This document shows positions 1,209 to 25,441 of a stretch of DNA of 36,974 bases, one piece after another. Below the pieces are notes generated by a model that did not search any database, was not told where the DNA came from, and worked only from the letters and a program-made list of their open reading frames with translations. A program made the translations under genes and the position numbers. Where the stretch lies: the NCBI GenBank assembly GCA_017549265.1, contig JAFYVF010000008.1, positions 1 through 36,974 on the forward strand, given 5' to 3'. The stretch comes from Clostridia bacterium (GTDB lineage Bacteria > Bacillota > Clostridia > UMGS1840). Every line of letters starts with the position of its first letter. Within the stretch, counting starts at the first letter, position 1.

Positions 1209-3413
1209 TTATTTTTCTTCTAACAGTTTAATCACATAATCAATATTGATTTTATTGCGTTCCCGAAGTTCGTGCAGGCGGACAGCTAAATCGGTGCGAA
1301 TCCGTTCCCGATTGGCAATGATTCTGTCTGCTTTGGAAGAAAAGCTCATTCTGGTGAATTCTAAAAGGCCCATGCAGGTATCCTGCCCAAAATATTTCAT
1401 CACGCTTTGCACCTTGGGGTCATAAGCAAGACCGATGGCAGGCACATTGGCGGTGAAGGCATAAATCAGAAGATGGAGTCTCATCCCCACAGCAAACAGA
1501 GAAGATTGTGCCAAAGCGATACAGGTGTCTGCCGAAAGCCGTTTGGTAACACAGGGGGAGTTGGTCAGTTTTGCATATTTTTGGTTGAGTGCCACATCCT
1601 GAGGGAACTGCATCGGAACAAAGAGCAATTCGCAGCCGTGTTTTTTCTTAATGTCTTTTAAGGCATCCAGCAGTTCTGCTTCAAAGAGGGGAACGGTTTT
1701 CCACTCACGAAGGGACACCATCACATAGGGTTTTCCGTTTAAATCGTAGCGGTACAGCAGGGAATCTGCCTGTTCGGTGTTAATATCGGTCAAGGCAAGA
1801 ACAGGGTCGCAGGTCACTGCGGTTTTGGGAGAAATGATACCCCATTCGTTCAACAAATCCTGAGAGTCTTCTTCCCGAAGGGTAATCACGTCCACCCGAT
1901 TTAAAACATTTTTGGTGCGTTTTAAGTTTTGTTTTTTGTTCACAGGACCGATACCGTTGGCATAGAGCATCACTTTGTTATTCTGTTTTTTTGCCATGCG
2001 GATTAAGGTGAGATAGTAAAGCAAAGATTTGGTGGAGGTGGCATCCTGGATAATGCTTCCTCCTCCCGAAATAAACAGACGGGATTCTTTTAACGCTTTA
2101 CGGATGGCAAACAGATTCCAGCGACTTACGGCATTTACCTGATAATTTCGTTTGGTATCGCCGGGGCGGTTGGATAAAATGGTGATGCCCATATCCGGGT
2201 CGTATTCTCTGATATCTTTGATAATTTTCTTTAAAATGGCATCATCACCGGAGTTACGGAACCCGTAATAGCCGGAAAGAACAATATCGCTCTTTTTCAG
2301 TTCAAAAAGAAGCTGTTGATACACGCCGATGGCATCCTCGGTCATTCGTTTGGCAGAATATTCGGTCAACACCAAATTCTGTAAGCCCGAAACGGTTTCT
2401 TCTTTCAGATTTTTTTCCATTCGGTAGGCATCGCAGATGGCACGTACCAGTTTATTCTCGGTGGGAGCTTCCAAGCCACGGCAGGTAAAGTTGGTGCTTC
2501 TCATATTGGAGAAATCTTTCACGGTAAGGATGCCGTGATGACCGTAGCTACCTGTCAATACCACGATTTTTCCTGCTGCCATTGCTTCCAATGCTGCACG
2601 GGAAATTCCCACAAACACGTCTGCCAATGCAATAATTTTGTTCACATCGTTTCGTTTGCCTGCCATAATGACGGTGCGGTTTGTTAAAGTGCGGTTGATT
2701 TCTTCTGCTTTTTGGGAAAGTTCCTCGTAGGCATCTCCGTCACCAACAATCACAATCTGCACGTCTTTTAATTTGCGGTTTAATTCTTCTGCACGTTGTA
2801 AAAGCAGATACGCACTGTCGCAGTTTCCCTTTTCCAAACGGCACACGCAAACGATTTTTTTGGAGTGTTCTTTGATTCCTAATTCGTTCATGAGCTCACG
2901 GTCAGGCTTTACTCCAACAAATTCCTTTTCGTTAATGCCGTTGACAGTGATGGTGATATCCTTACTTTTCATTTTGCTGTTTCGGATTAAGTGACGCTTT
3001 AAGTCATCCGACACAACCAAACATTTATCTCCCCAAACGGTGAATTTTTTCACAAAAGAATTTTTGGTAAAGGCAAAATGCAGGGTGGATACAAAACCGA
3101 ATTTCAGTTTTTTCTTCAGCATATGTACAATGAGATTGGGAATTCTGGCATGAGAATGCACAATGTCGAACTGTTCTTTTTGGATCAGTTCTTTCATGGT
3201 TTTGTAAGAAGTGATAATATCCTTGGGCGCTTTGGAGGAGAGGGGAGCATAGGTATGCTCAATGCCGCATTTTTTCAGCTCGTCCTCAAAAATACCGCCT
3301 TCGGAAATGACTTGTACCGTGTGACCTGCTGCCACCAGTCCTTTTGCCAGTTCTAAAATATGAGTTTCAGCACCGCCGATATCCATTTTCATGGATGCCA
3401 GTAATATTTTCAT
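1209..3413 (-). CDS. Fusion protein with an N-terminal GT4 glycosyltransferase and a C-terminal CsaB-like polysaccharide pyruvyl transferase
   Basis: 734 aa. The N-terminal half has the GT4 signature (MKILL..DIGGAETH.., ..ALEAMAAGK.VV..). The C-terminal half (from about residue 375, ISGYYGFRNSGDDAIL..GGGS.IQD..S) matches the pyruvyl-transferase/CsaB family as I remember it. Confidence 0.8.
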   Translation of the reverse strand: MKILLASMKMDIGGAETHILELAKGLVAAGHTVQVISEGGIFEDELKKCGIEHTYAPLSSKAPKDIITSYKTMKELIQKEQFDIVHSHARIPNLIVHMLKKKLKFGFVSTLHFAFTKNSFVKKFTVWGDKCLVVSDDLKRHLIRNSKMKSKDITITVNGINEKEFVGVKPDRELMNELGIKEHSKKIVCVCRLEKGNCDSAYLLLQRAEELNRKLKDVQIVIVGDGDAYEELSQKAEEINRTLTNRTVIMAGKRNDVNKIIALADVFVGISRAALEAMAAGKIVVLTGSYGHHGILTVKDFSNMRSTNFTCRGLEAPTENKLVRAICDAYRMEKNLKEETVSGLQNLVLTEYSAKRMTEDAIGVYQQLLFELKKSDIVLSGYYGFRNSGDDAILKKIIKDIREYDPDMGITILSNRPGDTKRNYQVNAVSRWNLFAIRKALKESRLFISGGGSIIQDATSTKSLLYYLTLIRMAKKQNNKVMLYANGIGPVNKKQNLKRTKNVLNRVDVITLREEDSQDLLNEWGIISPKTAVTCDPVLALTDINTEQADSLLYRYDLNGKPYVMVSLREWKTVPLFEAELLDALKDIKKKHGCELLFVPMQFPQDVALNQKYAKLTNSPCVTKRLSADTCIALAQSSLFAVGMRLHLLIYAFTANVPAIGLAYDPKVQSVMKYFGQDTCMGLLEFTRMSFSSKADRIIANRERIRTDLAVRLHELRERNKINIDYVIKLLEEK

Positions 3414-3446: not shown

Positions 3447-4085
3447 TTAGGAGGCAAAACCGTTGCCGTCCTTGTCATAAAAACCAAGTCTGGTTGCTAA
3501 AAATGCGGTGATTTGGATACCGCTGTCTGTCATTGCTTTCTTTAAAAGCAGGGGATTTAAGGTTTTTTCGTTTCCGCAGGCACAGTTTAAGGAGAGGTTC
3601 ACTCCTTCTTCGGTGTCGGTTAATTCGTAGCGGAACATGAGTTCTTTTAAATCAATGGTTTTGGTTTTCCCTTTGGAGAATTTTTCAAAAGGAATGGTTT
3701 CCTGTGCTAAAAAGTCACGGATTTTTTCTTTTTCGCAGGTGCGGATGGTAATACTGTATTCCGCATTGTGAGTATCGTTGAATTTCTTTAAATTTTCGGT
3801 GTAAATTTCCACGGGCACAATTCCTTCGGGACTTGCCAAACGGAGCTTTTCCTTCACTTCACCGAAGGAGAGGGAATCGGTTTTTAATTCAAAATCCAGA
3901 AACTCCTGTTTTCCCACAATGCCTAAGGGCAGCGGATTTGCAATATTTAATACCATATGGGGATTAAATCCTTCCGAGTATTTTAAGGGAAGGCCTGTGC
4001 GTTTTAGAATTTTCTGCACTGCCTTCATCAAATCCAGATGGGAAATATAGGGCATATTTTTTTCAAACTGTAATCTGATTTTCAT
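3447..4085 (-). CDS. TIGR03936/DUF2344-family (radical-SAM-associated) protein
   Basis: MKIRLQFEK..ISHLDLMKA..R.GLPL.YSEGFNPH is typical of DUF2344. I start at the internal ATG (4083-4085) with an AAGGAA RBS. The longer track ORF would overlap femX. Confidence 0.8.
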   Translation of the reverse strand: MKIRLQFEKNMPYISHLDLMKAVQKILKRTGLPLKYSEGFNPHMVLNIANPLPLGIVGKQEFLDFELKTDSLSFGEVKEKLRLASPEGIVPVEIYTENLKKFNDTHNAEYSITIRTCEKEKIRDFLAQETIPFEKFSKGKTKTIDLKELMFRYELTDTEEGVNLSLNCACGNEKTLNPLLLKKAMTDSGIQITAFLATRLGFYDKDGNGFAS

Positions 4086-4095
4086 AATAAATTCC

Positions 4096-5157
4096 TTATG
4101 CTTTGTTTTTTTTGCGGAGATAACGTTTTCTGCGCATTTCTCTGAAAATTTGTTCACCGCGGTGTACCGCCCAGTTGGTAAAGCGGGAGAAGACCACTTC
4201 AATTTCGCCTAGGAATTCGGTAAATTCACCGTTGAAGCCTTTTTTGAAGCGATACAGACCATATAAGGGGTTGTCTTCGCTCAAATCACCGGACACGCCA
4301 CGGAAATCGTAAATATCGCAGCCTTTTTCAATGGACCAGCGAATCATTTCCCACTGGAGCTGATAGTTGGGCATCACGTTACGGTATGCATTGCCGGATG
4401 CACCGTATAAGTACCACACTTTGTTGCCGTAGTAGATGGCAAGGGTACCTGCGATGGGTTTCCCTTCAAAATCCGCCATATACAGACGGGCATTGTCTCC
4501 GTAAACATCCAGCATTTTTTCAAAATAGGAAGCAGGACGTACCACAAATTCGTCACGAAGACCGGTTTCTTCCATCAAACGCTGGAAGTCTTTTACGTCT
4601 TCTTTGCCGCCTAAACGGACAGTTACGCCTTTTTTCACGGAAAGACGGATGTTGTAACGGGTTTTGGAATGAAAAATATCAAATACTTCTTCTTCGGTTT
4701 TTCCTGCCACGTCCAGACGGAACACAAAGCAAGGCTGAATCCCTTCAAAGTTTTTGCTTCCGGGAATGATTTTAAAGCCGGCATCGGTTAAATTTTGTTT
4801 GAATGCTTCGTTATCGCATTTTACGTCCGGGTCTGCCTTGAATACGTATGCCTTATGTTTTTTGGCAAGTTTTTTAATCCCGTCGTATAGTTCTTTTAAG
4901 GTTTCCTTATCGTCCAAATTGCAAACGGGACCTCTGGGAGAATACATAATGGTTCTTTTAATGACGGGAACGGGACGGATTAACACGCTCATAGCGCCTT
5001 TGATTTTATTGTTGCTATCGGTACAGATTAAAATCACGTTTTTCCAGTCCGGTTTCATCTGAGCCCAGAGAACAGACTGCATAAAGTGCCCCTTAGGATG
5101 ATTTTTATTAAATTCTTCGTATTCTTCGTATCTATCTTTTGTGAGTTCGGTTACCAT
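4096..5157 (-). CDS. FemAB-family peptidoglycan aminoacyltransferase (FemX/MurM-like)
   Basis: 353 aa. The N-terminus EEYEEF...HP.GHFMQS..WA..K and overall length are typical of the FemAB family. The start overlaps the gatD stop by 26 nt. Confidence 0.8.
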   Translation of the reverse strand: MVTELTKDRYEEYEEFNKNHPKGHFMQSVLWAQMKPDWKNVILICTDSNNKIKGAMSVLIRPVPVIKRTIMYSPRGPVCNLDDKETLKELYDGIKKLAKKHKAYVFKADPDVKCDNEAFKQNLTDAGFKIIPGSKNFEGIQPCFVFRLDVAGKTEEEVFDIFHSKTRYNIRLSVKKGVTVRLGGKEDVKDFQRLMEETGLRDEFVVRPASYFEKMLDVYGDNARLYMADFEGKPIAGTLAIYYGNKVWYLYGASGNAYRNVMPNYQLQWEMIRWSIEKGCDIYDFRGVSGDLSEDNPLYGLYRFKKGFNGEFTEFLGEIEVVFSRFTNWAVHRGEQIFREMRRKRYLRKKNKA

Positions 5158-5863
5158 AGTTTAAGACATATCCTTTCGCAAGTTTTTCATGTTCGCATGC
5201 AATGGGAGCAAGCTCCGGGAACGAACCGTATTTTTTTTGGATTGCTTTTCCGATGAGCAAGTCGCACACTTCCGGATTTTTTGGCAGGAGCGGACCGGAA
5301 AGGTGCGTGCCGATAAAGCTTTTTACGATGGCACCTTCCGTTTGGTCTTCCCCGTTGTTGCCGTGACCGCTTAAAACGGTTCCCAAGGGGTCAGCGCCGG
5401 GTGCCAGACGAGTTCTTCCCGTGTGGTTTTCAAAGCCTGCCAGAATCCCCAAAGGAGAATCAACAGCCACATTGCCGATCAGCTTTTCTGCTCCGGCTTC
5501 GGTGGTCATGGGAATAAGCCCAAGCCCTTCGTGGACAGCACCTTCTGCCACAAAGGAATGTCCCAGCAGGGGGAATCCCGTTGCCACCGCTAAGAGAACA
5601 CCTTCCTCATCACGGTAGCGAAGCAATTCTTCCCGATGGTTTTTTAGTTTTTCTGCAATTTTTTGCAAGTCTTTTTCACTTGCGCCACCTAAATAAACAA
5701 TATCTACATCTGTCAAGTCGATTTCTTCCGAAAAGGGGAGGGAAATCACCTCTAATTCAATGTTACGGAGACGGCACCGTTTTTCAAATACTTTCATGTT
5801 TCCCCGGTCGCCGTATAAATTCAAAAGTTCGGGGAATAAATGCAGTAATGTCAGTTTCATCAT
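5132..5863 (-). CDS. gatD: GatD-like (CobQ-type GATase) partner of MurT, with both catalytic residues substituted
   Basis: 243 aa, collinear without gaps with S. aureus GatD as I recall it (LNLY.D.GN, GFENH.GRT, G.GNN.ED..EG, GP.LPKN). It has A94 (GCA, 5582-5584) where Cys94 sits and S189 (TCC, 5297-5299) where His189 sits. Confidence 0.85.
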   Translation of the reverse strand: MMKLTLLHLFPELLNLYGDRGNMKVFEKRCRLRNIELEVISLPFSEEIDLTDVDIVYLGGASEKDLQKIAEKLKNHREELLRYRDEEGVLLAVATGFPLLGHSFVAEGAVHEGLGLIPMTTEAGAEKLIGNVAVDSPLGILAGFENHTGRTRLAPGADPLGTVLSGHGNNGEDQTEGAIVKSFIGTHLSGPLLPKNPEVCDLLIGKAIQKKYGSFPELAPIACEHEKLAKGYVLNYGNRTHKR

Positions 5864-7218
5864 ACTTCCCCTTTCTGAATGGTTTTTCCAAATGCTTTTT
5901 CTGCTTTTAGCAGTTCTTTCTTGGCATCAAAAATCAAAGTATAATTCACCAGAAGGTAAACCACTTCGCAGTCGGTTTCCAACAATTCCAGACCCAGTGT
6001 GACAGGATTTTCATTCACCTTCACGTCTTCCACATCTGCATAGAACCAGCGAACCGCCATATCGTGGCATCGTTTTCCTGCGGCACCGTGTGCCACGCAG
6101 TCGGATAACAGTTCAAAATCCACATCGTAAAGCCAGGAAATATCTATGCCGTCGGAGGGCATATCGTTGATGCCGACCACAACCGCTTTTTTACGGGGGT
6201 CATTTTTTAAGGTAGCAATCGCCTGATTGAAGCCTGCGGGATTTTTTGCTAAGTTCAAAATGACCGGTTTTTCTAAGAAAAATTCTTCCATGCGGGCAGT
6301 CTGGGTTTCGTAATCGGCAAAAATTTCGGTATAGTTATGAATTTTTAAGTTCACGGTTTCTGCCACCGCAATGGACGCCAGCGCATTGTATAAATTATAG
6401 AATCCCAATAAGGGGGTTTTTACTTCTTGCTTGCCGTTTAGCAGGAACGAAAGGGTGGGTGAAAGCTCCACGTTGCTTGCGCTAAAATCGGGTTCGGGAC
6501 GTTTGAAATCACACCCTTCGCAGAAGAAATCTCCCAACTGGTTATAGTGATAGAAGTTGTAAGACAATTCGCTTCCGCAAAACAGACAGGTTCTTCCTTC
6601 TTTGGTTTCGGTTTTGGGCTGATTGGTTTCTTCCGAAACACCAAAAATCACGTGAGGATTCTCCACACTCTTGGTGAAAGAAGCGCACATGGGGTCATCC
6701 CCGTTTAACACGAGCGTTGCATTGGGTGCTTTTTTTACAGCGATTTTCAGCTGTTCCAACGTTTCGGTGATTTCACCGTAACGGTCCATCTGATCACGGA
6801 ACAGGTTGGTGATTACAATCACGTCAGGTGTCAGATAATCAAACACGATTTTAGCACTGGCTTCATCAATTTCCAGCACAGCATAGTCTGCCTTCAGGGA
6901 GCCAAACAGCCCTGCAGTACTGATAAAAGCTGTGGCAATTCCGTCCAGCATATTGGCACCCACCGTATTACACACTGCGGTGTGCCCCGATTCTGTGACG
7001 AAGGTGTTAATCATATTGTTGGTGGTGGTTTTTCCGTTGGTACCCAGCACACAGATAATTTTTTCTTTCACTTTGGGTGCAAGCAGTTCTAACGCCTGGG
7101 GACAAATCTTTAAGGCAATTCTGCCCGGTGCGGAAGAGCTTTTGGTGCCCATCAGCTTTCCTGCCACGATGAGTAATTTGCAAACTATTACGGCTAACGC
7201 CAGTCGCAGTTGTTTCAT
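5860..7218 (-). CDS. murT: MurT, Mur-ligase-family lipid II isoglutaminyl synthase subunit
   Basis: 452 aa with P-loop GTNGKTTT, EIDEAS, TNLFRDQMDRYGE, a Cys4 ribbon (CLFC...CEGC) and the C-terminal DUF1727-like segment NDMPSDGIDISWLYDVDFE. There is an ATGA overlap with gatD. Confidence 0.9.
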   Translation of the reverse strand: MKQLRLALAVIVCKLLIVAGKLMGTKSSSAPGRIALKICPQALELLAPKVKEKIICVLGTNGKTTTNNMINTFVTESGHTAVCNTVGANMLDGIATAFISTAGLFGSLKADYAVLEIDEASAKIVFDYLTPDVIVITNLFRDQMDRYGEITETLEQLKIAVKKAPNATLVLNGDDPMCASFTKSVENPHVIFGVSEETNQPKTETKEGRTCLFCGSELSYNFYHYNQLGDFFCEGCDFKRPEPDFSASNVELSPTLSFLLNGKQEVKTPLLGFYNLYNALASIAVAETVNLKIHNYTEIFADYETQTARMEEFFLEKPVILNLAKNPAGFNQAIATLKNDPRKKAVVVGINDMPSDGIDISWLYDVDFELLSDCVAHGAAGKRCHDMAVRWFYADVEDVKVNENPVTLGLELLETDCEVVYLLVNYTLIFDAKKELLKAEKAFGKTIQKGEV

Positions 7219-7248: not shown

Positions 7249-8916
7249 TTACACTTCCATAATAATGGGGAGAATCATAGGAGAACGCTTGGTTTTTTTT
7301 GTTAAATAGGTACTCACCTGAGAACGCATTTCATTTTTTAAGGATGCCCAGTCGGTCACTTTTCTTTGGAGCATTGCTTCTAATGCTTCTTTGGCAACCT
7401 GACGGGTTTCTTCCATTAAATCCTCGCTGTCTCTCATATACACAAAACCGCGGGAAATAATGTCGGGACCGGAAAGAATCTGACCGGTTTCGGCAGATAA
7501 TGACACCACGATCACAATGAGCCCGTCCTGAGATAAATGCTTTCTGTCACGAAGCACAATGTTACCCACATCGCCTACCGATAACCCTGCCACAAACACT
7601 TTACCCGAGGGCACACTACCTGCAGGTTTTACTTGTGTTTTGGATACCTGCAACACATTTCCCAACTGAAGAATGTGAATACGGTCTTCGGGAATGCCCA
7701 CTTCCATCGCCAGGTTTTTATGATGAATCAAGTGCTTATATTCCCCGTGGATGGGCATAAAGTATTTGGGCTTGGTCAGTGCCAATATCAGTTTTAATTC
7801 TTCCTGACAGGCGTGACCTGAAACATGCACATCCGCTAAGTTATCGTACACCACTGAGGAACCGCGTTTGAATAACTCGTTCACTACGGTGGAAACTAAT
7901 TTTTCATTGCCCGGAATGGGATTTGCGCTTAACACTACCAAGTCGTTGGAAGTAATTTCCACTTTCCGATGGGCAGAGAATGCCATACGGTGCAAACCGC
8001 TCATAGGCTCTCCCTGACTTCCGGTGGTGATAATGGTTAAATGCTCATTGTTATAGTTTTTAATATTATCAATATCAATTAAGGTGCCTTTGGGAATCTT
8101 CATATAGCCCAGCTCCTGAGCAACCTGCACCACATTTTCCATACTTCTGCCCGATACCGCAACTTTACGGTTATAACGGACGGAAGCATCAATAATCTGT
8201 TGCACACGGTGCACGTTGGATGCAAAAGTGGCAATGATGATTCTCTTTTTGGGATTGGTGATGAAAATATCATTTAAAGCTTTTCCCACCGAGCGTTCAC
8301 TCTGGGTGTAGCCGTGGCGCTCTGCGTTGGTGGATTCACTCATTAAAAGGGTCACACCCTGTTTACCCAGTTGGCCGAATCGTGCTAAGTCAATCATATT
8401 TCCCGTCACGGGAGTGGTATCTATTTTAAAGTCCCCGGTGTGCAGAATAATGCCTTCGGGGGTGTGTACTGCAATGGCAACCGAATCCGCAATGGAATGG
8501 TTGGTATGGATAAATTCCACGGTGATGTCGCCAAATTTCAGGGTGTCTCCTGCAGTTACCTGATTTAAGGCAACTTTTGTGAGCAGATTGTGCTCTTTTA
8601 ACTTGAATTTTACAAGACCGATGGTCAGCTTGGTGCCAAACACGGGAATGGAACAATCTTTCATAAGATAGGGAATTCCACCGATATGGTCCTCATGACC
8701 ATGGGTTAACACCAACGCTTTAAATTTATGTTGATTTTTAATAATATACGAATAGTCAGGAATTACCAGGTCAACACCCAGCATATTCTCATCCGGAAAG
8801 GCAACTCCGCAATCAATTAAAATACCGATATCACCGTACTCGATAGCGGTCAGGTTCTTTCCGATCTCATGAAGTCCTCCTAAGGGAATTACCTTCAGTG
8901 TTTTCTTTTTTGCCAC
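7249..8916 (-). CDS. rnj: Ribonuclease J
   Basis: Metallo-beta-lactamase/beta-CASP protein with HGHEDHIGG. I start at GTG 8914-8916, with GGAGG 6 nt upstream, giving 555 aa. The ATG at 8976 lies upstream of the predicted -10 box. Confidence 0.9.
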   Translation of the reverse strand: MAKKKTLKVIPLGGLHEIGKNLTAIEYGDIGILIDCGVAFPDENMLGVDLVIPDYSYIIKNQHKFKALVLTHGHEDHIGGIPYLMKDCSIPVFGTKLTIGLVKFKLKEHNLLTKVALNQVTAGDTLKFGDITVEFIHTNHSIADSVAIAVHTPEGIILHTGDFKIDTTPVTGNMIDLARFGQLGKQGVTLLMSESTNAERHGYTQSERSVGKALNDIFITNPKKRIIIATFASNVHRVQQIIDASVRYNRKVAVSGRSMENVVQVAQELGYMKIPKGTLIDIDNIKNYNNEHLTIITTGSQGEPMSGLHRMAFSAHRKVEITSNDLVVLSANPIPGNEKLVSTVVNELFKRGSSVVYDNLADVHVSGHACQEELKLILALTKPKYFMPIHGEYKHLIHHKNLAMEVGIPEDRIHILQLGNVLQVSKTQVKPAGSVPSGKVFVAGLSVGDVGNIVLRDRKHLSQDGLIVIVVSLSAETGQILSGPDIISRGFVYMRDSEDLMEETRQVAKEALEAMLQRKVTDWASLKNEMRSQVSTYLTKKTKRSPMILPIIMEV

Positions 8917-8966
8917 AATAATCCTCCGATTCTTAATTTTTCCGAACATATAATAATAGTCATTAT

Positions 8967-8995
8967 AGTATAACATAATATTTTTATTCTGTCAA
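8967..8995 (-). promoter_or_regulatory. sigma-A-type promoter of the rnj operon (TTGACA-17-TATACT)
   Basis: Minus-strand TTGACA (8990-8995), 17-nt spacer, TATACT (8967-8972). Confidence 0.55.
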
Positions 8996-24061: not shown

Positions 24062-24889
24062 ATGAGATTGAATAAGAGTGCGTTGTTGGACGCTGCTCAG
24101 AAATTAAACGGAGATGATAAGAATTACTTGGTTCGTGTGGAAGGAAATAAAATCATTACCTCTGTAAAATGGCAGGATGAAACTTTCTTTTCTCCCGATT
24201 CGGTAACTGATGAAATGCGTTCTTTTTCGTATACTGTGCAGATTTTAGACAATGGGAAATATCAGGAGATGGCACAGGAAAAAGTGAGCAAAGCTTTTGC
24301 TGCAAATGAATATAAAACACCTGTGAGAACCTTGCTAAAAGAACACGGTTGTAAAAAGAAGATGGGAAAAGGCACGAAAATTTTCATCTGTGTTGCCATT
24401 TTTTTAGCGATACTGATTGCAACCGTGGGGGTATTGGTTTTCACTCTTATGAATAAAAAACCTATCAGTGCACAGGAGTTTCGTGCAAAATCGGAAGCTC
24501 AAGGCTATCAGGTGAGCGTTTTGGAAGATATGCAACGATTCGAAAACAAAGTGGGTGTGAAGTTTGAAACGCTTGGTGATTTTGAAGAATCTTCTTTGGT
24601 AGCTTATGACGAAGAAGATAAATTTCGGGTTGTATTTTTGGATTACGAAGATTCCCGTAGCGCTGAAGAAGTGGTAGTGGCATGTATGAACGAAATGGAA
24701 AGTGCTGCCTTGCGAAAAGGGAAACCGTCAAATGCCATCATTTTTTCTGAACATTATGATAGAGTCACCATGGATACCATCAAAGAATTCCGGCATCTTG
24801 TGAGAATTGATGATACCTTGATTTTAGTATCAACCAAGGCGGAAAACAGAGCAGAGGTAAAAGCATTTATTGAATCTTTGGGATATTAA
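24062..24889 (+). CDS. Single-pass membrane protein of unknown function (paralogue 2)
   Basis: 275 aa with an AGGAGG RBS and the same architecture as the 21820 gene. Shared blocks are LNGDDK.Y...VEG..I.T.VKW.D.TFFSPD, NGKY, EYK.PVR.LLKE.G.KKKM and a C-terminal RID.T......E.....V.AFI...GY. Confidence 0.7.
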   Translation: MRLNKSALLDAAQKLNGDDKNYLVRVEGNKIITSVKWQDETFFSPDSVTDEMRSFSYTVQILDNGKYQEMAQEKVSKAFAANEYKTPVRTLLKEHGCKKKMGKGTKIFICVAIFLAILIATVGVLVFTLMNKKPISAQEFRAKSEAQGYQVSVLEDMQRFENKVGVKFETLGDFEESSLVAYDEEDKFRVVFLDYEDSRSAEEVVVACMNEMESAALRKGKPSNAIIFSEHYDRVTMDTIKEFRHLVRIDDTLILVSTKAENRAEVKAFIESLGY

Positions 24890-24919: not shown

Positions 24920-25441
24920 ATGAAAAAAATAGCAGTATTATTAGCAATGATGTTCTGTGTAACCCTTTTGGCAGCTTGCCAAAGTCAGCCTGCCAAGACG
25001 GAAGAGGGAACTCAGGAAAATCCCTTAATGAGCGCAGTTTGGACTGGATATGACAAAATGCCGTTCCCCGAATTTTTAGGGACAGCAATGGAGAATATGC
25101 CTGCGGAACTTGGGGTGGTTGAAAGTTATGAAGTCACAGCTACCGCCGGCTGGCCGGAAGGTATGAATGATATTCCGTTGGAACCTGCAGAGGGAACCGT
25201 TCCCGTGACCTACACGTTTGTGGCAGAAGCATCCGAGGGCGGCAGTGATGTTGAACAAGGGATTATCGAGTTTGCTGTGGGATTAAATGAAGATACCAAT
25301 ACCTTTGAAATTGAATGCATTTTCCTAAACGGCGAATATTTGCCTTATGAATCTATCGAGCCCGGAATGAAACCGCTTTGCTTATTAGCAGATGGCGAAG
25401 CAGATAAAATTACTGAAACGCAAGTAATAGCGGAGCCGTAA
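24920..25441 (+). CDS. Acidic lipoprotein of unknown function
   Basis: Signal peptide with lipobox LLAAC (Cys20), AGGAGG RBS, and a mature part rich in E and D. Confidence 0.75.
   Translation: MKKIAVLLAMMFCVTLLAACQSQPAKTEEGTQENPLMSAVWTGYDKMPFPEFLGTAMENMPAELGVVESYEVTATAGWPEGMNDIPLEPAEGTVPVTYTFVAEASEGGSDVEQGIIEFAVGLNEDTNTFEIECIFLNGEYLPYESIEPGMKPLCLLADGEADKITETQVIAEP

Follow-up and report, generated by a model that had tools for sequence, protein, structure and literature searches.

What does a lipid II isoglutaminyl synthase do once its glutaminase subunit can no longer release ammonia from glutamine? The question is raised by three overlapping genes, murT, gatD and femX, in a 36,974-nucleotide stretch of DNA (contig JAFYVF010000008.1 of the Clostridia bacterium assembly GCA_017549265.1; the whole stretch is referred to here as the window). 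An earlier note on this DNA had described a seemingly competent MurT ligase beside a seemingly dead GatD partner, and had suggested two ways in which such a pair might work: amidation of the alpha-carboxylate of D-glutamate (D-Glu) in the peptidoglycan stem peptide with free ammonium, or attachment of a different nucleophile to that carboxylate, the chemistry needed for group-B peptidoglycan. Following up both suggestions, we consider it probable, at moderate confidence, that the pair amidates the D-Glu of lipid II in an ammonia-dependent manner and that GatD is kept as an obligatory structural subunit. A MurT/GatD enzyme with a pseudo-glutaminase subunit is a new form of a known system, and no description of a naturally inactive GatD was found in the literature searched.

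Loss of the glutaminase residues in a GatD clade

Alignment of the window GatD to the solved Staphylococcus aureus protein (1.4e-39, full length) revealed that the catalytic cysteine is replaced by alanine (Cys94->Ala; ltiCggyqflg in S. aureus, llavAtgfpllg in the window) and the catalytic histidine by serine (His189->Ser; gtylHgp and gthlSgp, respectively). A clade-wide comparison of 29 members with 91 canonical GatD sequences placed further replacements in the glutamine pocket: Q98 is Pro and Q66 is Leu in 100% of the clade, the latter changing the DREQ motif, R128 is Lys in 90%, and nearly every member has another residue (T, S or N) in place of G95. Across the same clade, position 94 is A, T, G or S, position 189 is S, T or A, and position 150 is occupied by nine different residues. 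Such variable replacements at ex-catalytic positions indicate a vestigial pocket and not a new active site. In the S. aureus system, C94G or C94S in GatD abolishes glutamine-dependent activity (PMC3266927, PMC6113224). Because Cys94, His189 and residues of the glutamine pocket are all gone, the window GatD is predicted to be unable to make NH3 from glutamine, and the description of the partner as catalytically dead was borne out. The protein scores 156.4 bits against the NCBIfam equivalog cut-off of 450 for GatD. We also considered a shifted nucleophile, Ser or Thr at position 95 (25 of 29 members) acting with Lys127, and judged it unlikely: four members have Asn or Gly at this position, and the idea is weakened further by the missing His and the hypervariability of the adjoining pocket positions.

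The variant extends well beyond this contig. Cys was absent in 30/30 closest homologues (98-54% identity) and His in 29/30, the canonical GGYQLLG and GTYLHGP motifs reappearing only at <=52% identity. Eight reference-genome loci (L001-L008) carry the variant, all of them from uncultured 'Clostridia bacterium' metagenome-assembled genomes (MAGs); the genome sources named, for two loci, are deer rectum MAGs. The ruminant gut is an ammonia-rich habitat. Since the pattern is common to 30 homologues and eight genome loci, it is far beyond chance. In a tree of MurT plus GatD, built by a distance method with bootstrap, the Cys-less GatD clade (hereafter the dead clade) was monophyletic with 100% bootstrap support.

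Selection on the genes was estimated from pairwise ratios of nonsynonymous to synonymous substitution (dN/dS). At unsaturated distances (dS ~0.5-1.2), dN/dS was 0.09-0.14 for gatD, 0.055-0.10 for murT and 0.04-0.05 for femX, the gatD ratio rising up to 0.25 in deeper, saturated pairs. A decaying pseudogene was rejected as an explanation for gatD on the strength of these unsaturated values and of a full-length open reading frame (ORF) in all loci. Relative to MurT, GatD evolves 1.2-1.8x as fast in the dead clade versus 0.7-1.1x in pairs with a live GatD, and on this account its constraint is partly relaxed, not lost. Little or no variation was seen in the GatD elements that touch MurT (N15/L16, D19, G21 and G190-P191-x-L193-P194). 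Moreover, the fold is retained: an AlphaFold (AF2) model of GatD reached a predicted local distance difference test score (pLDDT) of 87 and a predicted template modelling score (pTM) of 0.85, and it superposed on solved GatD chains (6gs2, 9sq9, 6fqb) with template modelling (TM) scores of 0.84-0.88. An isolated, strain-specific decay product, which the earlier note had named among the outcomes that would undo its proposal, is thus ruled out by a monophyletic Cys-less clade under purifying selection.

Loss of the cysteine has also occurred independently, and the recurrence of Cys and/or His loss in the wider family speaks for the ammonia-dependent reading. Two Cys-less murT-gatD pairs without femX were found in a Syntrophomonadaceae MAG (L081) and an Oscillospiraceae MAG (L083), with Cys->Ser in the former GatD and Cys->Ala together with Gln->Pro in the latter. 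Convergent MurT changes in L081 and L083 were not found, except for a Met at the second position of the DNAAD motif in L083. The L081 MurT (3593-4996), paired with the Cys->Ser GatD, has lost the negative-gate and bridge residues R141, E207 and D365 (R141N, E207V and D365E in window numbering), which the window clade keeps. A single-chain MurT-GatD fusion (P0379, 674 amino acids (aa)) combines Mur_ligase_M, MurT_C and GATase_3 domains and carries Cys->Gly and His->Gly in its GatD domain; further single-chain fusions include P0245 (737 aa) and other matches of 670-940 aa. An orphan GatD-like gene was observed in L082 (5001-5729 in GCA_045531355.1), with Cys->Gly and the His kept; it overlaps the end of purD within a purine-biosynthesis cluster, with no murT within 5 kb. 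Among 20 representatives, all from metagenomes or MAGs and labelled at most as Oscillospiraceae or Syntrophomonadaceae, no cultured organism combining a Cys/His-less GatD with a known peptidoglycan chemotype was found.

The MurT ligase and the source of its nitrogen

The MurT encoded beside this GatD matched solved structures of both the Streptococcus pneumoniae protein (6fqb_A, 7e-67) and the S. aureus protein (6gs2_B, 6e-66), and scored 273.7 bits against an NCBIfam equivalog cut-off of 800. Conservation was counted over 22 clade sequences, with residue roles taken from PMC6085368 and PMC6113224. Kept in 22/22 were K63 (P-loop), N89, E116, D118, E119, R141, D142, D145 and R146, as well as E207, R309, K325-N326-P327 (the KNP loop), D352, D356, D359, W362 and D365. 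By role, the residues kept throughout comprise the P-loop Lys, the Mg-binding Glu and Asp-Glu pair, the acceptor Asn, loop 135-143, the adenine-binding Asn residues, the hinge Arg, the aspartates of the DNAAD motif and the 'negative gate' E207/D359/D365. The motifs GTNGKTTT, EIDE and NLFRDQMDRYG and the Cys4 ribbon (C211/C214/C233/C236) are likewise invariant in the clade. MurT looks catalytically competent, as had been proposed from these same motifs. Twelve substitutions are specific to the clade; each is conservative, and none falls at a known functional site. Relaxation is clear at a single place, a zinc-ribbon position in contact with GatD, which is T, A, N or K in the clade and Phe or Tyr in 104/105 other MurTs.

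The earlier note had also pointed to D352 as an Asp near the position of the S. aureus triad Asp349. The triad Asp is indeed kept, but the residue corresponding to S. aureus Asp349 is D359 (DGID359ISW); the counterpart of D352 is S. aureus D342, the opening Asp of the DNAAD motif. D359 does not vary among the dead-clade sequences (22/22) and is present in both L081 and L083 despite the loss of partner residues: the Cys throughout the dead clade, together with the His in all but one of its members, and the Cys only in L081 and L083. This persistence hints at a role for D359 that is independent of glutamine hydrolysis. As a separate observation, every dead-clade MurT has Met at the second position of the DNAAD motif (DMPSD, 352-356), as does the independent Cys-less lineage L083; in other MurTs this residue is K, N or A.

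In the following scheme we infer that ammonia supplies the nitrogen, that GatD serves as a scaffold, and what FemX acts on. MurT would bind ATP, phosphorylate the alpha-carboxylate of the stem-peptide D-Glu and then amidate it. GatD, no longer hydrolysing glutamine, would remain indispensable to MurT as a structural or allosteric subunit. Nitrogen would most likely come from free ammonia or ammonium, taken straight from the cytoplasm of these ruminant-gut anaerobes, because GatD can no longer hydrolyse glutamine. FemX would act as a separate, translationally coupled tailoring enzyme of the stem peptide, probably adding the first bridge residue to the diamino acid at position 3.

The free-ammonium option of the earlier note has a direct precedent in biochemistry. 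At pH 8.5, the S. aureus GatD(C94G)/MurT complex still amidates lipid II with NH3, and no donor supports activity of S. aureus MurT on its own (Munch et al. 2012, PMC3266927). That mutant resembles the window pair in combining a Cys-less GatD with an intact MurT, and in it GatD is still needed as a partner (PMC3266927). It differs in being engineered, whereas the window pair belongs to a natural clade conserved to ~54% identity; furthermore, the window GatD also lacks His189 and several pocket residues, and the mutant was active only at pH 8.5. The retention of a GatD that makes no ammonia would be explained in the same way, because MurT is inactive and unstable without GatD.

Several points weigh against an ammonia-dependent amidase. 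The S. aureus enzyme was inactive with NH3 or NH4Cl at pH 7.5 (PMC3266927), so efficient use of ammonia at physiological pH would need adaptation, and the residue comparison found no adaptive change for ammonia use in MurT. The invariance of D359 although the His of its triad is gone requires another role for this residue. The profile search returned 22/149 scorable representatives (at 50% identity) without Cys and/or His, a proportion that is probably inflated, being drawn from the top 150 matches to the dead-clade profile. All clade members are known solely as uncultured MAGs, and a second, canonical murT-gatD pair may be present in the same genomes.

Gene order, FemX and other possible roles for the pair

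The history of the locus bears directly on these roles. The order murT-gatD-femX with overlap was present in 8/8 dead-clade loci, and no femAB gene lay within 8 kb in any of 67 canonical loci (0/67), which are mostly from Coriobacteriia. The co-oriented, adjacent murT-gatD arrangement recurs in L001-L008, and the gatD-femX overlap in L001-L008 and in three loci of a sister lineage, L076-L078. These three (3/3) share the order RNase J-murT-gatD-femX-DUF2344-GT4/pyruvyl transferase (GT4, glycosyltransferase family 4) and encode a canonical GatD with Cys, His, Arg and GGYQ. Two more relatives, L079 and L080, share this locus apart from femX, and their GatDs are partly degenerate, which looks like graded decay of the glutaminase across the broader lineage. 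The L079 GatD (7380-8108) keeps the Cys and shows His->Gln and GGYQ->GSAQ; the L080 GatD (7340-8119) keeps both Cys and His and shows GGYQ->DSCQ.

In the tree of MurT plus GatD, a single group (99-100% support) unites L076-L080 with the dead clade, which is nested among them. RNase J upstream and DUF2344 downstream occupy the same positions in L076-L080. Because the locus order is common to lineages with a live GatD, the dead gatD is identified as orthologous to the canonical gene and as occupying its ancestral site. Similarly, because L076-L078 have femX beside a canonical GatD, femX is placed in the operon independently of, and before, the inactivation of GatD.

The femX product belongs to the FemAB family, like Weissella viridescens FemX and FemX/MurM-type transferases, and its full-length matches in the PDB include FemX of S. 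aureus (9e-53) and of W. viridescens (1.3e-40); like the latter, it has no coiled-coil insert. Its residues K35, D109, R207, F304 and K305 align to K36, D108, R211, F304 and K305 of the W. viridescens enzyme (1ne9), which we take to be its key functional residues. It differs from that enzyme in scoring 187 bits against the cut-off of 500 for the NCBIfam FemX equivalog (L-Ala to Lys N6), and in that the start codon of its gene lies inside the 3' end of gatD. With a dN/dS of 0.04-0.07, the lowest of the three genes, FemX looks functional.

Synonymous divergence in femX shows a pattern of its own. In the same genome pairs, dS of femX lies below that of murT and gatD (0.62 versus 1.08 and 1.01 for the window and L001); in deep pairs it is 0.9-1.3 versus 1.6-2.7 for murT and gatD, and femX also has the lowest dN. 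Between the window and L001-L008, FemX is 88-96% identical in amino acids where MurT is 63-86% identical. Strong codon constraint on femX or recombination among lineages are possible causes of its low dS.

These observations bear on the second option of the earlier note, in which MurT, with the dead GatD as scaffold, would ligate another amine to the D-Glu alpha-carboxylate: an amino or diamino acid, as in a group-B bridge, or a diamine. We regard this as unlikely. An intact ligase without a glutaminase does leave the nucleophile formally open, any amine with a positive charge would be well matched to the conserved negative gate E207/D359/D365, and the Met at the second DNAAD position is fixed in the clade and recurs in an independent Cys-less lineage. 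There is also a natural precedent for the product: the peptidoglycan of Selenomonas and Veillonella carries cadaverine or putrescine at the D-Glu alpha-carboxylate, as documented in Negativicutes of the rumen and gut, and the literature searched contained no assignment of the enzyme for polyamine attachment or of the group-B bridge ligase. Group-B and polyamine-linked peptidoglycans thus share their target carboxylate with the window enzyme, but nothing in the window MurT suggests a bulkier nucleophile. Its catalytic, acceptor and gate residues are the same as those of canonical amidating MurTs and have not been remodelled, its 12 changes being conservative, and the GatD pocket positions are variable instead of re-fixed, with no sign of a new ligand site. 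The graded decay outside the clade (His->Gln in L079, GGYQ lost in L080) resembles relaxed selection, not neofunctionalisation. Organisms with group-B or polyamine-linked walls belong to Actinobacteria, Erysipelotrichia, Eubacteriaceae and the diderm Negativicutes, not to this Clostridia clade.

The combination of a FemAB neighbour with a dead GatD, which had been taken as a pointer to a new nucleophile or to a group-B bridge, did not hold up in that role. In L076-L078 femX stands beside a live GatD, and in L081 and L083 a dead GatD accompanies murT without femX; the co-occurrence of a Cys-less GatD with FemAB is therefore not a specific link. Fem transferases use aminoacyl-tRNA to acylate amines; extending a carboxylate calls for different chemistry, and femX lends no support to a bridge at the D-Glu carboxylate. 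Furthermore, no decarboxylase or racemase gene was found in the window by Pfam annotation. The narrower proposal, that MurT on its pseudo-GatD scaffold has given up ammonia and now joins cadaverine, putrescine or a D-diamino acid, each a cationic amine, to the alpha-carboxylate of D-Glu in lipid II, seems to us very unlikely; if it were true, Cys-less GatD/MurT would be the missing enzymes for polyamine-linked or group-B-type peptidoglycan.

It is also quite improbable that the pair is silent or nearly so, with amidation lost or reduced and a non-enzymatic role remaining, in which it might, for example, bind lipid II, act as a scaffold, or regulate FemX or wall synthesis. The failure of the S. 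aureus complex to use NH4Cl at neutral pH (PMC3266927) would fit such a role, as would the faster evolution of GatD than of MurT in the clade; tight translational coupling with femX could reflect a complex. On the other hand, the conservation of the ATP-, Mg- and acceptor-binding residues of MurT in 22/22 sequences, at a dN/dS of 0.055-0.10, is hard to explain without catalysis, and murT-gatD pairs with a dead GatD occur elsewhere without femX. A supply of ammonia by another glutaminase or amidase, in trans or docked, or a status of the pair as an extra paralog beside a canonical murT-gatD, is similarly doubtful: orphan GatD-like genes in other MAGs, such as the one next to purD in L082, speak for it, but the pair sits at the ancestral locus of the canonical pair, its clade is nested in the tree as expected of an ortholog, and 0/67 canonical loci came from the eight dead-clade assemblies, a weak point given the limited patterns of the scan.

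Operon layout, comparison with known systems and meaning

The features of the locus are listed in Table 1; its three genes lie where the earlier note had put them. The junction of murT and gatD, GTATGATG, contains by direct reading an ATGA common to both genes, the sequence around the murT stop and the gatD start being GGGGAAGTATGATGAAA. This overlap indicates translational coupling of murT and gatD. Both overlaps that the earlier note had described, murT with gatD and gatD with the FemAB gene, were confirmed by sequence reading, at 4 nt and 26 nt. An apparent overlap of femX with the next ORF is an artefact of a TTG-extended ORF call: the Pfam DUF2344 match starts at residue 41 of the TTG-started ORF, which corresponds to an ATG near 4084, the likely true start of the DUF2344 gene.

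Table 1 Positions of the murT-gatD-femX genes, their overlaps and other features in window coordinates
Feature	Position	Strand	Description
murT	7218..5860	-	452 aa; Pfam Mur_ligase_M (PF08245, 2.5e-20) and MurT_C (PF08353/DUF1727, 1.2e-25)
gatD-like pseudo-glutaminase gene	5863..5132	-	243 aa; GATase_3, 3e-24
femX-like FemAB-family gene	5157..4096	-	353 aa; Pfam FemAB, 4.7e-69
murT stop/gatD start overlap (ATGA)	5860..5863	-	4 nt; sequence reading
gatD 3' end/femX 5' end overlap	5132..5157	-	26 nt; sequence reading
RNase J gene	7249..8976	-	Upstream neighbour; Pfam RNase_J_b_CASP and RNase_J_C
Gene for DUF2344/TIGR03936 radical-SAM-associated protein	3447..4084	-	Downstream neighbour; Pfam DUF2344, 1e-41; NCBIfam TIGR03936
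Gene for fused GT4 glycosyltransferase and polysaccharide pyruvyl transferase	1209-3413	-	After femX and the DUF2344 gene
ORF	24062-24889	+	275 aa; downstream of GT4, adjacent to the next ORF; no Pfam match
ORF	24920-25441	+	173 aa; downstream of GT4, adjacent to the preceding ORF; no Pfam match

Beyond these genes, the wider window is ordinary core chromosome, encoding RNase J, GroEL, GyrB, PEPCK, KsgA, RecD2 and MutS2. The order of the DUF2344 and GT4/pyruvyl transferase genes is kept in all of the related lineages L076-L080. The run of femX, DUF2344 and GT4/pyruvyl transferase genes points to a larger operon for the cell envelope, perhaps one that makes a pyruvylated secondary wall polymer.

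The closest known system is the MurT/GatD isoglutaminyl synthase of S. aureus, S. pneumoniae and Mycobacterium tuberculosis (EC 6.3.5.13). The window pair shares with it the overlapping two-gene operon, the MurT domains, the Cys4 ribbon, all MurT residues probed and the GATase_3 fold; it differs in the loss of Cys94 and His189 and the replacement of Q98, R128 and Q66 in GatD, in scores far below the equivalog cut-offs, and in the joining of femX to the operon. A parallel in evolutionary logic is offered by mammalian carbamoyl phosphate synthetase 1 (CPS1), in which a glutaminase-like domain of the class I amidotransferase fold, lacking the catalytic Cys, is kept in a structural or allosteric role while the synthetase uses free ammonia. 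CPS1 was among the fold matches to the model of the dead GatD, at rank 25. It belongs, however, to another synthetase family with another reaction, and is a fused eukaryotic polypeptide, so that the analogy is not one of system homology.

If the pair is an ammonia-dependent amidase, GatD would join the short list of pseudoenzyme glutaminase subunits that have an active synthetase partner, and the clade would be a natural case in favour of the laboratory result that MurT depends on GatD for structure and not solely for ammonia. The invariant MurT Asp (S. aureus D349), found here without its His partner, suggests a role beyond completing the glutaminase triad. With amidation drawing on ammonium, database names such as 'glutamine-hydrolysing lipid II isoglutaminyl synthase' or 'glutamine amidotransferase' would no longer be correct for these proteins. 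Because loss of Cys and/or His recurs in several lineages and in a fusion protein, these natural variants lend themselves to telling apart what GatD, a proposed drug target, does as a scaffold and what it does as a catalyst. For the organisms themselves, the implication would be that peptidoglycan amidation in some gut anaerobes draws on ammonium and not on glutamine.

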